A DNA stretch of 56,184 nt, taken from Actinomycetota bacterium (GTDB taxonomy: Bacteria; Actinomycetota; Acidimicrobiia; Acidimicrobiales; SZUA-35). A program made the position numbers and the translations under genes. The stretch covers positions 1-56,184 of the forward strand of contig JBCCGJ010000003.1 in the NCBI GenBank assembly GCA_039029335.1, in the 5' to 3' direction. This document shows positions 29,743 to 54,635 of this stretch, piece by piece. Below the pieces are notes generated by a model. It had not been told where the DNA came from. It made no database searches and was given only the letters and a program-made list of their open reading frames with translations. The stretch's first letter is position 1. Every line of letters starts with the position of its first letter.

Positions 29743-29936
29743 CTTTTATCCTGATCGTTGTGCCGGCGAGGTCGGGTCCACGATGCTCGAGGGAATTTGT
29801 AGCACCGTTCCGGAACGAGGGATCGTGATGGCGCCAGGTTGTCAACAACCTGCAGTAGGAAGGCCCAGGACGTGAACCAGTTTCGAACCACATCGAGCCG
29901 GACGGGCACGCGCCCCACGTGGTTCGGTGGCCGCTG

Positions 29937-31532
29937 ATGGCGGGCGACGACCAGACCTTCCACGATGCGATCGAAGGCTACTGCGGCCGGCTGAGTTACT
30001 TCGCCGGCGACACCGTTGAGTTGCACGTCTCCACCACCGCCGACCACTACGGCGTCACCGTAACGCGGTGGGGGGCCGAGCGGGAGGTCGCCTGGACCGC
30101 CGACGGGCTCTCGGGAGTGTCCGTGGCGGTGCCGCCGGACGCCGACAGCGAAGGTTGTGGGTGGCCGGTCAGCGTGTCGTTCGAAGTTGATCCGGCATGG
30201 CGTTCCGGGTTCTACCTGGTCACCCTGACCGCAGCGGGGGCCGAACCGGGCCGGGACGTCAACCACGCCTGCTTTGTGGTCCGTGGTCCCCGGGCCGCGG
30301 ACGAGCGACAGGGCGTGCTCTACGTCATCGCCACCAACACCTGGAACGCCTACAACACCTGGGGAGGAAAGAGCCTTTACACCGGCGGGCACAAGGTTTC
30401 GTTCTCCCGTCCGTTCGGCCGGGGCCTTCTCGACCGGCCAGAGGTGGATCGGGATGACCGCAAGGCCAGACCCACTCGCTATGGCGAGACGCCGGATGCC
30501 GACGGCCGGATTTTTCAGGAGTACCGGACGACAAACGCCTACCCGTCGGCCATCGGTTCGACCGGTTGGTTCACCCACGATCGCCGGTTCGTGACGTGGG
30601 CCGAGGCCAACGGTCATCACTTCGATTACGCGATCTCCGCCGACCTCGAGCAGGATCCGACGGCGCTCGACGGGTATCGGGGGGTGGTGCTGGTCGGCCA
30701 CGACGAGTACTGGAGCGGTCCCCAGCGGGCGGCGATCGAACGGCACGTCGCAGCTGGTGGGCACCTGGCGTCGTTCTCCGGCAACACGATCTTCTGGCAG
30801 GTACGTCTGGAACCGGGAGTCGGCGGTGACTCGATGGTCTGCCACAAGTATCGGGCCCATCTGGACGATCCTGTGGTGGCCGACGGTCGGCCGGAGACGA
30901 TGACCGGCATGTGGGCCGATCCGCTGGTCGGCGAACCGGAGTGGCGGTTGCTCGGCGCCGGGTCGGCCTTCGGGCTGTACCACCGCTTCGGCACGGCCAC
31001 CGCCAGAGGGGTCGGCGGGTTTGTGGTCTACCGGGATGACCACTGGCTGGTCGAGGGAACCGGGCTCCGATACGGCGACGTTCTCGGCGGGCCGGACGGC
31101 GTTGTCGGCTATGAGACGGTCGGCTGCCCGCTCACCCTCGACGAGCTGCAGCTGCCGGTGCCCAGCGCCGCGGCCATCGCCGCCGGGGTGCCGGAGGACT
31201 CCGTCATCGTCGGCTGGGTCCCTTCCAGCAATCTGGGCGTCGGGGAGTATCCGGCGTCGATCGCCGCGCTCAACGATCAGGGGGACCTTGAGTTCATCGC
31301 CGAGCGGGTGTTCGCGGACGGCGGCCCCGACGGTGCCACCGAAACCGGTCCGGAGCGGGCACTGGCCCGGGCCCGGCTGGGCAATGCGGTCATGATGACC
31401 ACCAGACCGAACGGTGATGCAGGCGGCGAGGTGATCACCATCGGTACCACCGACTGGGTGTTCGGGCTGCCGACGGATGACGCCGTCGCCGCCGTGACCG
31501 GGAACGTGCTGCGTCGGTTGGCCGGATGGTGA
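29937..31532 (+). CDS. N,N-dimethylformamidase large/beta subunit family protein
   Basis: TNTWNAYNTWGGKSLY, VSFSRP, VGHDEYWS and FSGNTIFWQVR motifs. Exact start uncertain. Confidence 0.82.
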   Translation: MAGDDQTFHDAIEGYCGRLSYFAGDTVELHVSTTADHYGVTVTRWGAEREVAWTADGLSGVSVAVPPDADSEGCGWPVSVSFEVDPAWRSGFYLVTLTAAGAEPGRDVNHACFVVRGPRAADERQGVLYVIATNTWNAYNTWGGKSLYTGGHKVSFSRPFGRGLLDRPEVDRDDRKARPTRYGETPDADGRIFQEYRTTNAYPSAIGSTGWFTHDRRFVTWAEANGHHFDYAISADLEQDPTALDGYRGVVLVGHDEYWSGPQRAAIERHVAAGGHLASFSGNTIFWQVRLEPGVGGDSMVCHKYRAHLDDPVVADGRPETMTGMWADPLVGEPEWRLLGAGSAFGLYHRFGTATARGVGGFVVYRDDHWLVEGTGLRYGDVLGGPDGVVGYETVGCPLTLDELQLPVPSAAAIAAGVPEDSVIVGWVPSSNLGVGEYPASIAALNDQGDLEFIAERVFADGGPDGATETGPERALARARLGNAVMMTTRPNGDAGGEVITIGTTDWVFGLPTDDAVAAVTGNVLRRLAGW

Positions 31533-32463: not shown

Positions 32464-32504
32464 TCTGTCGGCCTGTTTCTGTCGGCCGCTTCCGTCGGCC
32501 TGTT
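32464..32504. repeat. Three tandem 13-14 bp imperfect repeats in the SDR 5' region
   Basis: TCTGTCGGCCTGTT / TCTGTCGGCCGCT / TCCGTCGGCCTGTT. Confidence 0.55.
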
Positions 32505-32556
32505 CGGTCGCTCGCCCGAAGATGTTAAGTGTACCTAATTCGCGTCCGGTGCCAAT

Positions 32557-33114
32557 CTAGGGCGCCGGACGGGCGGCGTCCATGAGTTCTTCGATACCCG
32601 GTCGGTCATCCGGCCCGGCCCCCCAGTACCCGTACTCGAGTACACCGTCCGGTCCGATGACAAAGTCCCCGCCCAACTGCAGGGGGTCCTCCGTCGGTCG
32701 TGATGGTTTCAGTCTGCCACCTGGCCGGACCAGTTGCAGGTACCGCCGCAGGGCTCGAAGGCCCCAGACCCGTGCCACCGAACCGCGGCCGAGGCCATAT
32801 GCCCAGTACCCCCGGCGATCCGGATCACGAACCACCCGATAGGGGAGCGAGGTTCGCTCCACGTAACGGGTCAGGTTTGTGTCGTCGGTGAAGGTGACGA
32901 GGACCGCGTCGGTTTCGGGACCAAGTTCGTCGAGACGATCGCCGACCGCAATCGCATGTGCCGCACACGGCACTCAATGGATGTGCCGGTGAAAGATCAG
33001 GACAACCCTCCGTCCGAGATGGTCGGCCAGTTGCCACGGCGTGCCGTCCCGGTTGATCAGCTCCAGCGCCGGCGCCGTCCGACCGATGATGGGGCGGACC
33101 CCGGGAGCAGTCAC
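32557..33114 (-). CDS. Peroxiredoxin-like (AhpC/TSA, SelL-related) selenoprotein with UxxC motif
   Basis: GTG 33114 opens MTAPGVRPIIGRTAPALELINRDGTPWQLADHLGRRVVLIFHRHIH-TGA(32976-32974)-VPCAAH, in frame with the 32557-32973 ORF (DPDRRGY, QLGGDFVIGPDG). TACCGT -10 box 6 nt upstream. SECIS-like hairpin downstream of the TGA. Confidence 0.85.
32935..32955 (-). promoter_or_regulatory. Putative bacterial SECIS hairpin
   Basis: mRNA GCGAUUGC-GGUCG-GCGAUCGU: 8-bp stem including 2 GU pairs, G-initiated loop starting at nt 27 after the UGA. Confidence 0.6.
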
Positions 33115-33137
33115 AGCCAGACGGTAGTGCAAAAGCA

Positions 33138-33192
33138 GGCCGACCCGGTCAACCGCTCGGCGGTGGCCGAAGCGATTGACCGGGTCTGGCCG
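33138..33192 (-). terminator. Long inverted repeat / terminator after the small ORF
   Basis: GGCC-GACCCGGTCAACCGCTCGGC-GGTG-GCCGAAGCGATTGACCGGGTC-TGGCC, followed on the minus strand by TGCTTTT. Confidence 0.6.
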
Positions 33193-33229
33193 GGGCCCGT
33201 CGACGGGGTGGTCGACGGAGGGGAATTGA

Positions 33230-33382
33230 TCAGAGGAGGCCGCGGACGTTGGTCCGCATCTCCTCGAGTCGGACCGCCGACTCGTTCAGCTCCGCAACGG
33301 ATGCGCCCTGCTGGCGTAGTTCCTGATGGGCCCACCAGCCGGTGAGCAACGAGTTGATGGCGGACTGCATTTTGTGTGACAT
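33230..33382 (-). CDS. Small hypothetical protein (50 aa)
   Basis: GGAGG RBS 6 nt before ATG; MSHKMQSAINSLLTGWWAHQELRQQGASVAELNESAVRLEEMRTNVRGLL; followed by a terminator; divergent from the Lrp gene. Below the ORF-track length cut-off. Confidence 0.65.
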   Translation of the reverse strand: MSHKMQSAINSLLTGWWAHQELRQQGASVAELNESAVRLEEMRTNVRGLL

Positions 33383-45106: not shown

Positions 45107-45739
45107 ATGTCATTGCGTTTGGGAGATGCCGCACCGAACTTCACCGCGACCACCACCGATGGAGACATCGATTTCCATCAGTGGAAGACGGACTCCTGGG
45201 CGGTGCTGTTCAGCCACCCGGCGGACTTCACCCCCGTCTGCACCACCGAGCTCGGTCGGACCGCCGCGCTGAAGGACGGGTTCGCCGCCCGGAACACCAA
45301 ACCCATCGCCGTCTCCGTCGACCCGATCGAGGATCACCACGGCTGGACCCCCGACATTGCCGAGGTCACCGGATCCGAGGTCAACTTCCCGATCATCGCC
45401 GACCCGGATCGAACCGTTGCCGAGCTCTACGACATGATCCACCCCGGTGAGGGTGACACGTCGACGGTCCGGTCCGTGTTTGTCGTCGACCCGGCCAACG
45501 TCATCAAGCTGATCCTGACCTACCCGAAGTCGACCGGCCGCAACTTCGACGAGATCCTCCGGGTCATCGACAGCCTGCAGCTCACCGCCAACCATGACGT
45601 GGCAACCCCCGCGGACTGGGTGAAGGGGGAGCGGGTCATCGCATCGCCGGCGATGGCCACCGATGTCGCCCGCGATCGGTTCCAGAACCTCGAGGAGGTC
45701 AAGCCCTACCTCCGCTACGTGGACGACCCGACGGGCTGA
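45107..45739 (+). CDS. 1-Cys peroxiredoxin (Prx6)
   Basis: FSHPADFTPVCTTE, YPKSTGRNFDEILRVIDSLQ and ATPADW motifs. Confidence 0.93.
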   Translation: MSLRLGDAAPNFTATTTDGDIDFHQWKTDSWAVLFSHPADFTPVCTTELGRTAALKDGFAARNTKPIAVSVDPIEDHHGWTPDIAEVTGSEVNFPIIADPDRTVAELYDMIHPGEGDTSTVRSVFVVDPANVIKLILTYPKSTGRNFDEILRVIDSLQLTANHDVATPADWVKGERVIASPAMATDVARDRFQNLEEVKPYLRYVDDPTG

Positions 45740-53126: not shown

Positions 53127-54304
53127 CCGATCGTTGGCGGATCGGGTGGACCGCGGTGGCGGTTGGTGTGGCGCTGGTGATCATTGCTCCACTCGGCTAT
53201 CTCGGTTTTCGACAGGAGATGGCAGGCATAAAGGCCGAGACCGAGGCCTGGGCGGTCTACAAAGTGGAGACCGCCCTGCTGGATCGGATCGCCGATGTGG
53301 ACCGGGACCCTCCGGACAACACGTGGCTGGTCAACACGGAGGGCGGTTGGTCCGAGCCTGCGGGGGAGACCTGGACGGAGCCACCGCTGCTCAGCCTCGC
53401 CGACGCCGCCCTCGGTGGCACGGCCACCCGGGAGTACAACTTCGAGGGCGACTGGTTGGCCTATGCGGTCTGGGTCGGCGAGGACAACGTTGTGGTGGCC
53501 GTCGTCGATCGAGGCGGTGAGATCGAGGAGATCGGAGCGGCCCGGTTGCGATGGTCGGCCCTCATGCTCGGGGCGGCATTGGTTGCCGGTTTTGTCGCCT
53601 ACCTGGTGCTCGGCCGGATGCAGCGGCCGGTTCGGCAGGCCCACGTGGTGAATCGGGACTTCATCGCCGACGCGGCCCATGAGTTGCGTACCCCGCTGTC
53701 GATCATCCAGGCCTCGGCCGGATTTGCACTTGCCAGGGAGCGGGACCCGGTGGACTATCGGGAGTCGTTGACCGAGATCCTGGACGCCAGCGAGCGGGCG
53801 GGGGCCAGCGTCGGTGAACTGTTGGAATTCGCCAGGCTGGAGGCCGGTCAGGCATCGCTGCGGCTGGCTCCGCTGCGGTTGGATCTACTGGTCGAGGAGG
53901 TGGCCGCCTCGGTTCGGGTGGAGAACGTCACCGTGCAGGCCGCCCCCGGCGAGGCGGTGGTTGTCGAGGCCGACTACAACCTCCTCCGTCAGGTGATCGA
54001 CAACATCACCCGCAATGCCGCGGCCAGGGCCGACAAGGTCACGCTGGCCACCAAGCTGGACGCCAGGGAGGCGATCATCGAGGTGGTCGACGACGGGCCC
54101 GGATTCGATCCCGGCGTGATCGATCACGTCTTCGAGCGGTTCCGTCGCGGTGATCAGGCGGGGTCAGTCGGCCTCGGCATGGCGATCGCCCGGACCATCG
54201 TCGAACTGCACAACGGCTCCTGCGCCGCGGCGAATCGGTCCGCGGACGAGGGCGGCGGCGCGGTGGTCACCATCCGCCTTCCCTACAAATCGTCGCTGGT
54301 CTAA
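53123..54304 (+). CDS. Sensor histidine kinase
   Basis: Two TMs, ADAAHELRTPL H-box, DDGPG and GLGMAIA motifs; ATGA overlap with the response regulator. Confidence 0.93.
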   Translation: MTDRWRIGWTAVAVGVALVIIAPLGYLGFRQEMAGIKAETEAWAVYKVETALLDRIADVDRDPPDNTWLVNTEGGWSEPAGETWTEPPLLSLADAALGGTATREYNFEGDWLAYAVWVGEDNVVVAVVDRGGEIEEIGAARLRWSALMLGAALVAGFVAYLVLGRMQRPVRQAHVVNRDFIADAAHELRTPLSIIQASAGFALARERDPVDYRESLTEILDASERAGASVGELLEFARLEAGQASLRLAPLRLDLLVEEVAASVRVENVTVQAAPGEAVVVEADYNLLRQVIDNITRNAAARADKVTLATKLDAREAIIEVVDDGPGFDPGVIDHVFERFRRGDQAGSVGLGMAIARTIVELHNGSCAAANRSADEGGGAVVTIRLPYKSSLV

Positions 54305-54350
54305 CTGCCGCCGTCTGGCTGGTCTCCACGTGTCGTACCCTGAAGGAACG

Positions 54351-54635
54351 ATGAGCTCCCCGGAGAAGAACAGCGACCGGATCGAACAGATCGACCTGTA
54401 CTGGCGGCCCGGCTGACCGTATTGCCTGGCTCTCAAGGCCGGTCTGCGGTTCGCAGGCATCTCAACCGTCAAACACAACATCTGGGACAACCCGGCGGAC
54501 GCGGCAAAGGTCCGCAGCGTGGCCAACGGCAACGAGACCGTGCCGACGGTTTTTATCGGCGGGCACGCCATGGTCAACCCGACCGCCCGCCAGGTGAAGA
54601 AGGCCGCCAGGGAACTGGCCCCGCATCTCCTCTAG
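54351..54635 (+). CDS. Mycoredoxin/glutaredoxin-like selenoprotein with UPYC active site
   Basis: MSSPEKNSDRIEQIDLYWRPG-TGA(54414-54416)-PYCLALKAGLRFAGISTVKHNIWDNPADAAKVRSVANGNETVPTVFIGGHAMVNPTARQV...LL-TAG. The TGA sits at the first Cys of YWRPGCxxC. GAAGGA RBS. Confidence 0.87.
54423..54459 (+). promoter_or_regulatory. Putative bacterial SECIS hairpin
   Basis: Either UGCCUG...CAGGCA enclosing GGCC-GGUCUGC-GGUU (GGUC at nt 25 after UGA), or GUCUGC-GGUUC-GCAGGC. Both give a G-initiated apical loop at SECIS-compatible distance. Confidence 0.55.

Follow-up and report, generated by a model that had tools for sequence, protein, structure and literature searches.

A minus-strand reading frame in the window (the whole stretch of DNA analysed, 56,184 nucleotides from a member of the Acidimicrobiales) is open from position 33114 to position 32557 apart from a single internal TGA, which raises the question of whether this codon is a nonsense mutation, a boundary between two products, or a codon for selenocysteine (Sec, U). 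Our answer is that the TGA is a conserved selenocysteine codon rather than a nonsense mutation; the frame is very probably a genuine selenoprotein gene, in which this codon is predicted to encode Sec. The parts of the gene are:

32557..33114, minus strand: predicted selenoprotein gene, 185 sense codons and a TAG stop (translation with TGA as U)
33112..33114, minus strand: likely start codon GTG, placed by orthologue spacing
33130-33132, minus strand: alternative start, an in-frame TTG
32974..32976, minus strand: internal in-frame TGA, codon 47, first position of U-V-P-C
32965..32967, minus strand: TGT codon of Cys50, the partner of Sec47, an invariant column in a 29-sequence alignment (A3)
32557..32559, minus strand: TAG stop codon

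An earlier, sequence-only reading had proposed a thioredoxin-fold frame with a UxxC motif continuing through one TGA, and this was confirmed on the minus strand, the motif being U-V-P-C: when TGA was translated as U, the product around the motif was ...APALELINRDGTPWQLADHLGRRVVLIFHRHIH-U-VPC-AAH..., or, in longer context, ...VVLIFHRHIH-U-VPC-AAHAIAV.... Under the standard code, the frame breaks up into ORFs of 52 and 138 codons, and the longer one starts with the GTG immediately 3' of the TGA. The GTG at 33114 puts Sec at residue 47, and is the likely start because the ATG or GTG starts of three orthologues (L019, L020, and L022) show the equal spacing of 46 codons before U; no clear Shine-Dalgarno sequence was seen upstream of it. 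The prediction that gene callers would truncate this gene was borne out, since 116 of the best 120 database homologues spanned just 57-72% of the query; the usual database form in the lineage, represented by these same 116 matches, was a fragment of 127-140 amino acids without the active-site selenocysteine. The 138-residue ORF had itself been called and stored in the database (P0002), and the four short homologues that were aligned (P0002, P0027, P0060, and P0071) all started after the U column. Redox inventories of Acidimicrobiales MAGs therefore undercount selenoproteins and complete peroxiredoxin (Prx)-like enzymes, because the gene is stored as fragments, and the direct value of the present result lies in annotation.

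The translated product matched Pfam AhpC-TSA (PF00578) over residues 16-167 with 51.6 bits (gathering threshold, 26 bits), with further matches to Redoxin and AhpC-TSA_2 (34 bits). With C in place of U, it covered positions 2-172 of the 173 positions of NCBIfam NF040769, "SelL-related redox protein", with 118.2 bits, 1.8 bits below the naming cut-off of 120 and far from the next family (31 bits); all 29 sequences of alignment A3 matched the same model (best E, 4.5e-43). NF040769 is thus named here as the closest family, not as certified membership. The AlphaFold model, built on the 29 sequences, had a thioredoxin fold (pLDDT 91.5; pTM 0.89), in which helix 1 begins at residue 48, right after Sec47. 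Its best structural neighbours were BCP, AhpE, other peroxiredoxins, and ResA (TM up to 0.82; 14-21% identity). In a profile search of PDB sequences, "fhRHlmCLpCqeH" was aligned to "FYPAAFTQVCTKE" of BCP-type Prx, so that the Prx Pro, Thr, and Cys correspond to Arg43, Sec47, and Cys50, respectively; Cys50 was aligned with the conserved active-site Cys of the PDB chains 2ywn, 2cx3, and 5epf. The canonical peroxiredoxin motif PxxxTxxC is absent, and the protein is not a canonical peroxiredoxin because Sec replaces Thr and Arg replaces Pro of this motif. The designation "UxxC peroxiredoxin-like" given earlier therefore stands for the Prx-like fold and the UxxC motif, but does not extend to a canonical Prx active site; a better name is Prx-like / SelL-related UxxC redox protein, that is, a Prx fold with a thioredoxin/ResA-like U-x-x-C centre.

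The translated product showed no apparent signal or anchor sequence, and the intact gene would yield a cytoplasmic protein of 185 residues with a thioredoxin fold, of the Prx-like / SelL-related kind. Its U47-V-P-C50 centre at the N-terminus of helix 1 would act as a thioredoxin-like selenol/thiol pair: Sec47 may attack a disulfide, a sulfenic acid, or a (hydro)peroxide as the nucleophile, Cys50 would resolve the adduct to give an intramolecular selenenylsulfide, and a thioredoxin-type or low-molecular-weight thiol reductant could recycle the enzyme.

The same selenoprotein might use another chemistry, namely that of a peroxidase in which Cys50 attacks the peroxide and Sec47 resolves or tunes the reaction. 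The AhpC-TSA score, the BCP and AhpE peroxiredoxins as the nearest structures, and the alignment of Cys50 with the conserved Cys of BCP/PrxQ structures are all consistent with this. BCP/PrxQ and AhpE (PDB 3hjp, 2ywn, 2cx3, and 1xvw) share the fold and have their conserved Cys at Cys50; however, they carry Pro and Thr where Arg43 and Sec47 are found here, and their identity is 15-21%. On the other hand, CxxC oxidoreductases such as ResA (profile match with an E of 1.2e-08) have their N-terminal nucleophilic Cys where Sec is found here, and in UxxC selenoproteins it is normally Sec that attacks. We consider peroxidase chemistry at Cys50 unlikely and prefer Sec47 as the nucleophile. The likeness to ResA/TlpA (PDB 1st9 and 2h1b) consists of a CxxC-type motif at the helix N-terminus, the thioredoxin fold, and a Prx-like insertion. 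ResA and TlpA are membrane-anchored and extracytoplasmic; they form a different subfamily from the window protein, which has no apparent signal or anchor sequence.

Reading the TGA as Sec depends on the conservation of its column. When 40 related genomes were searched, 24 orthologues were found (in 22 of 24 genus relatives and 2 of 16 genomes from other families of the order), with protein identities from 61% down to 27%, and all 24 had exactly one in-frame TGA, in the same column, as the first position of U-x-x-C in the form FHRH[IL]x-U-LPC or LRHFG-U-LLC. Distant matches without stops were ordinary BCP/TlpA proteins with Cys. Eleven further Sec-forms that were fetched had the TGA at this column as well (11/11). 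In one of the orthologues (L039; G002:C56:133528-133902), the similarity ended after ...QLGGDFV and was followed by an Arg/Gly-rich tail, so that its C-terminal third probably reflects a frameshift or an assembly error.

A draw of 401 genomes across the phylum gave 67 genomes with a match at E<=1e-15; TGA was present in 71 of the 83 matches and absent from 12, two of which missed the motif column. Leaving aside ten genomes flagged as unpublished (G041, G159, G058, G127, G088, G265, G213, G381, G307, and G429), 57 of 391 genomes had a match and 58 of 69 matches had the TGA. Among the best 80 loci of named public genomes, whose hosts were mostly Acidimicrobiales, Ilumatobacteraceae, or Acidimicrobiia MAGs, 77 had TGA, two had TGC, and one was cut by a contig end (77 of 79 informative loci); this share was not favoured by retrieval, since the search pattern across the U column had been written with Cys. 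The possibility raised beforehand, that close homologues never have a TGA here, thus did not hold. The two close Cys-forms (TGC) among these 80 loci were L135 (CAZHKE010000002.1, 26227-27330) and L147. The record of L135 is labelled Bifidobacteriaceae and that of L071 Gammaproteobacteria, the other records being Acidimicrobiia, and these two labels look like binning or naming oddities.

Cys at this column, which had been suggested as a check, was found in the full-length database homologues P0003, P0007, P0011, and P0046 (FHRHLA-C-LPC). In alignment A3, W27, H42, R43, and H44 upstream of U and C50 and H53 downstream of it were invariant or nearly so. The in-frame UGA is therefore aligned with Cys and has conserved coding sequence on both sides, the pattern by which selenoprotein genes are recognized.

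These alignments also bear on whether the TGA might separate two real products, a 46-residue peptide and a 138-residue protein initiated at the GTG right after it. That this GTG directly follows the TGA, and that the 138-residue ORF has been called and stored, would fit such an arrangement. However, such a division would sever the thioredoxin fold at the junction of strand 1 and the active-site helix and deprive Cys50 of its redox partner; protein-level conservation extends to the upstream part, and all 24 orthologues have CTG (Leu), an uncommon start codon, right after the TGA. Two products are highly improbable, and a single protein read through the TGA remains the preferred reading.

Bacterial recoding of UGA to Sec uses a SECIS element, which in the bSECIS model is a stem-loop shortly 3' of the UGA whose apical loop contains a G. 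Two hairpins at SECIS distance had been pointed out in the sequence-only reading:

32935..32955, minus strand: distal hairpin, probable SECIS (MFE fold, conservation, compensatory changes, positional enrichment)
32955-32948, minus strand: its 5' arm, GCGAUUGC
32947-32943, minus strand: its apical loop, GGUCG
32942-32935, minus strand: its 3' arm, GCGAUCGU
32958..32973, minus strand: proximal hairpin GUGCCG-UGUG-CGGCAC, directly after the UGA, in the MFE fold

Both were present in the MFE fold; the 8-bp distal hairpin was conserved, whereas the 6-bp proximal one was not. The proximal hairpin was paired in 50% of cells among the 25 orthologues, a level reached by 189 of 500 shuffles, and, its pairing being no better than in shuffles, it was rejected as part of the SECIS and is probably incidental.

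The distal hairpin begins 18 nt, and its loop 26 nt, after the UGA, and the 8-bp stem and GGUCG loop correspond to the bSECIS description. In the 25 gap-free aligned sequences, 83.5% of cells were paired, and this fell to 27-43.5% when the 3' partner was slid by 1-3 columns. Double-change cells numbered 22, against 9.7 ± 3.7 in shuffles, a value reached by none of 500 shuffles; columns 34-48 showed the pair types CG/GC/AU, and columns 32-50 the types UA/CG/UG. The co-varying codon pairs were 54/60, 55/59, and 56/58, and some of the compensatory changes replaced residues encoded by both arms (Val/Asp, Leu/Glu, Leu/Gln, and Ile with Asp encoded by GAT). When uninterrupted hairpins of at least 6 bp were scanned by position in 36 Sec-forms (the 25 and 11 more distant ones), the best 6-nt windows (start +25 to +28) held the loop start in 20 of 36, compared with a median of 3 of 36 over 444 other windows and 11 in the runner-up; none of eight Cys-forms had a hairpin at that position. 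The loops nearly always contained GU (GGUCG, CGUGA, CGUGC, GUC, and AGUU). The SECIS of E. coli fdhF likewise has GGUC, with its G and U, as the loop that SelB contacts. Among the 14 candidate selenoprotein genes of the window's genome (see below), ten, including the window gene, had a stem of at least 6 bp with a GU loop 19-35 nt after the TGA, and seven had GGUC in the loop. These results suggested that the distal hairpin is the probable SECIS.

Other measures of structure gave less. The fold energy of the UGA-proximal 60 nt was not unusual (z = -1.04; 32 of 200 shuffles folded as well). RNAalifold on the 25-sequence alignment kept only the top three base pairs (-2.15 kcal/mol), and, since it recovered just these, the pair counts and the positional scan were relied on instead. 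By a crude measure of uninterrupted stems, 16 of the 77 public Sec-forms fell short of 5 uninterrupted bp where the hairpin is expected. A scan of 32500-33200 with Rfam at E<=10 gave no match to a SECIS model, only chance-level matches (miRNA precursor models and SAM-IV) far under their gathering scores; bacterial SECIS elements are described as poorly covered by Rfam in a preprint (10.64898/2026.04.03.716425).

The Cys-form L135 retains a perfect 8-bp hairpin, GCGGUCGC-CGUGA-GCGACCGC, where the SECIS lies in the Sec-forms, and this points to a recent Sec-to-Cys (TGA to TGC) change of which the hairpin is a relic; alternatively, the conserved peptide A-V-A-V-x-D-R with GC-rich codons may supply part of the complementarity. 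Because L135 keeps the hairpin despite its TGC, part of the complementarity in the family may be a relic or peptide-driven. More than 100 Sec-forms together with a few very recent Cys-forms, one of them still with the hairpin, make a clean natural series, usable to study how an in-frame SECIS constrains protein sequence.

Since the absence of Sec machinery had been named as grounds for giving up the selenoprotein reading, selA, selB, selC, and selD were sought in the window's genome, a 520-contig draft (89% complete, 5% contamination). All were found, above their cut-offs and on other contigs than the window:

C132:6244-6335: tRNA-Sec, 65.1 bits (cut-off 47); ARAGORN type SeC, anticodon tca
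C61:5883-8782: selA and selB, adjacent; 421.9 bits for selA and 293.8 bits summed for selB
C206:4435-5352 (L017): selD, 359.9 bits, with a TGA of its own (U in GAG-U-GCK)

Across genomes, selA was above the cut-off in 24 of the 25 that had the TGA form (in two pieces in G011), none of the eight genomes without selA had the TGA form, and eight genomes had selA and no TGA form. selA and the TGA-form gene lay on one contig in G003, G018, and G007 (a single contig), and the link between the two is thus independent of binning. From this anatomy and the known bacterial mechanism, SelB carrying Sec-tRNA(Sec) would bind the 8-bp hairpin with the GGUCG loop, which lies inside the reading frame 18 nt downstream of the UGA, and would deliver Sec at codon 47 before release factor 2 terminates translation.

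The UGA could in principle be read otherwise than as Sec, through a reassigned code or by near-cognate insertion of Trp, Cys, or Gly. Nothing specific was found in favour of this, an open frame under a changed code being no evidence by itself, and several observations oppose it: the column is Cys in homologues, the genome encodes the full Sec machinery, which is found together with the TGA form, a GU-loop hairpin is conserved downstream, and 20 of the 25 orthologous genes terminate in TGA, which is therefore an ordinary stop in these genomes. We regard such a reading as no more probable than two products, and Sec insertion is preferred. A pseudogene arising from a nonsense mutation, to which the end of standard translation at codon 47 and the storage of most relatives as fragments only might point, has a negligible probability: the TGA recurs at the identical column in all 24 orthologues and in 77 of the 80 public loci, flanked by conserved protein sequence, and independent nonsense mutations at one codon in more than 100 lineages are not credible.

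Gene context gave no hint of the substrate of this selenoprotein, since the neighbours are not conserved among orthologous loci: the SDR, the Lrp/AsnC regulator, the HTH protein, and the 50-residue ORF of the window had no counterparts within ±1.5 kb of the 24 orthologues. Conserved neighbourhood was therefore rejected as a clue to function, the sole recurring gene, DMFA2_C, being near 3 of the 24. In the window, this gene (29919-31532, plus strand) encodes a 537-residue protein similar to the beta-subunit of N,N-dimethylformamidase (DMFA2_C, 231.7 bits); homologues with 54-58% identity lie no more than 1.5 kb from the divergent orthologues L037, L038, and L040, and this proximity could be loose linkage or coincidence. 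The 50-residue ORF (33230-33382, minus strand), just upstream of the selenoprotein gene and on the same strand, matched no Pfam family and is perhaps not a gene.

Biologically, nothing here is unexpected: descriptions of UxxC Prx-like selenoproteins go back to the Sargasso/GOS analyses, and the earlier statement that Sec recoding is established in Prx-like families agrees with their being in print since 2008 (PMC2398784). Table 2 of that paper gives 225 selenoproteins for Prx-like 1 (pfam00578, UxxC) in the GOS data and lists Prx-like 2/3 and Trx-like families beside it, while the legend of its Figure 7 describes predicted bacterial SECIS elements with a conserved G in the apical loop. A table in PMC5029168 lists a "Prx-like thiol:disulfide oxidoreductase" and a "ULPU-containing selenoprotein". 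As described in these sources, the Prx-like UxxC selenoproteins of metagenomes (PMC2398784, PMC5029168) resemble the window protein in the AhpC/TSA domain and in Sec as the first residue of UxxC, and also (PMC2398784) in having Cys homologues and an apical-loop G in the bacterial SECIS; this is a likeness by description, not by sequence, and does not in itself establish the same subfamily. In contrast to the marine-metagenome Prx-like proteins as presented there, the window family has named hosts, mostly Acidimicrobiales/Ilumatobacteraceae MAGs. Sec use in another order of Acidimicrobiia is reported in a preprint (10.64898/2026.04.03.716425). The literature search found no paper using the names "SelL-related", "NF040769", or "SelL_rel_redox", and "ULPU-containing" was found in PMC5029168 only. 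The kind of protein is thus already known, and only this member and the lineage-wide picture are new.

The redox motif of the window protein lies at the same place of the Prx-like thioredoxin fold as that of SelL and the ULPU-containing selenoprotein, and the U-L-P-C of the orthologues (24/24) is one letter from U-L-P-U. SelL, which occurs in eukaryotes and bacteria, reportedly has a UxxU motif that forms a diselenide in such a fold. This UxxU is not found here, where each of the 36 Sec-forms examined has one TGA only and a Cys as the fourth residue of the motif; a selenenylsulfide is therefore expected rather than a diselenide.

A more interesting lead than the gene itself may lie beside it, since the genome appears to contain 14 or more candidate UGA-Sec genes: 10 of the 16 AhpC/TSA (PF00578) matches, including the window gene, 2 of 9 AhpD/CMD matches, 1 of 2 glutaredoxin matches, and selD. 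In addition to the window gene and selD, these are:

window 54120-54632, plus strand: glutaredoxin-like candidate, TGA at 54414-54416, motif YWRPG-U-PYC
C20:1663-2040, C23:29976-30344, C97:6262-6660, C74:1612-1986, and C175:1763-2107: first five of nine AhpC/TSA loci with TGA (L148-L156)
C459:3110-3409, C98:12792-13115, C27:9865-10116, and C219:7963-8274: last four of these nine loci
C138:6058-6246 and C89:13962-14213 (L157 and L158): AhpD/CMD candidates, TGA in C-x-x-U (C-HY-U and C-VH-U)

The genome therefore appears selenoprotein-rich, and we give about even chances that the window gene is one piece of an unusually large actinobacterial selenoproteome. If this were true of the whole genus, these Acidimicrobiales would belong with the selenoprotein-rich bacteria, and they could be a named source of the many "orphan" Prx-like/Trx-like selenoproteins of aquatic metagenomes.

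The TGA lay at the redox motif in all nine AhpC/TSA loci: two were Prx with T-x-x-U, six had U-x-x-C or U-G-C, and one was double, the latter being the TlpA-like C459 locus, in which two TGAs in W-U-P-H-U form a possible diselenide motif. The window also contains an ordinary AhpC/TSA-family gene (45122-45508, plus strand; 98.9 bits) with no in-frame stop. The Pfam Glutaredoxin match of the glutaredoxin-like candidate ran across the TGA (8.4e-12; 37.6 bits in the genome search), and a 7-bp hairpin with the loop GUU starts 35 nt after it. Both AhpD/CMD candidates had a strong GU-loop hairpin 22-23 nt downstream of the TGA.
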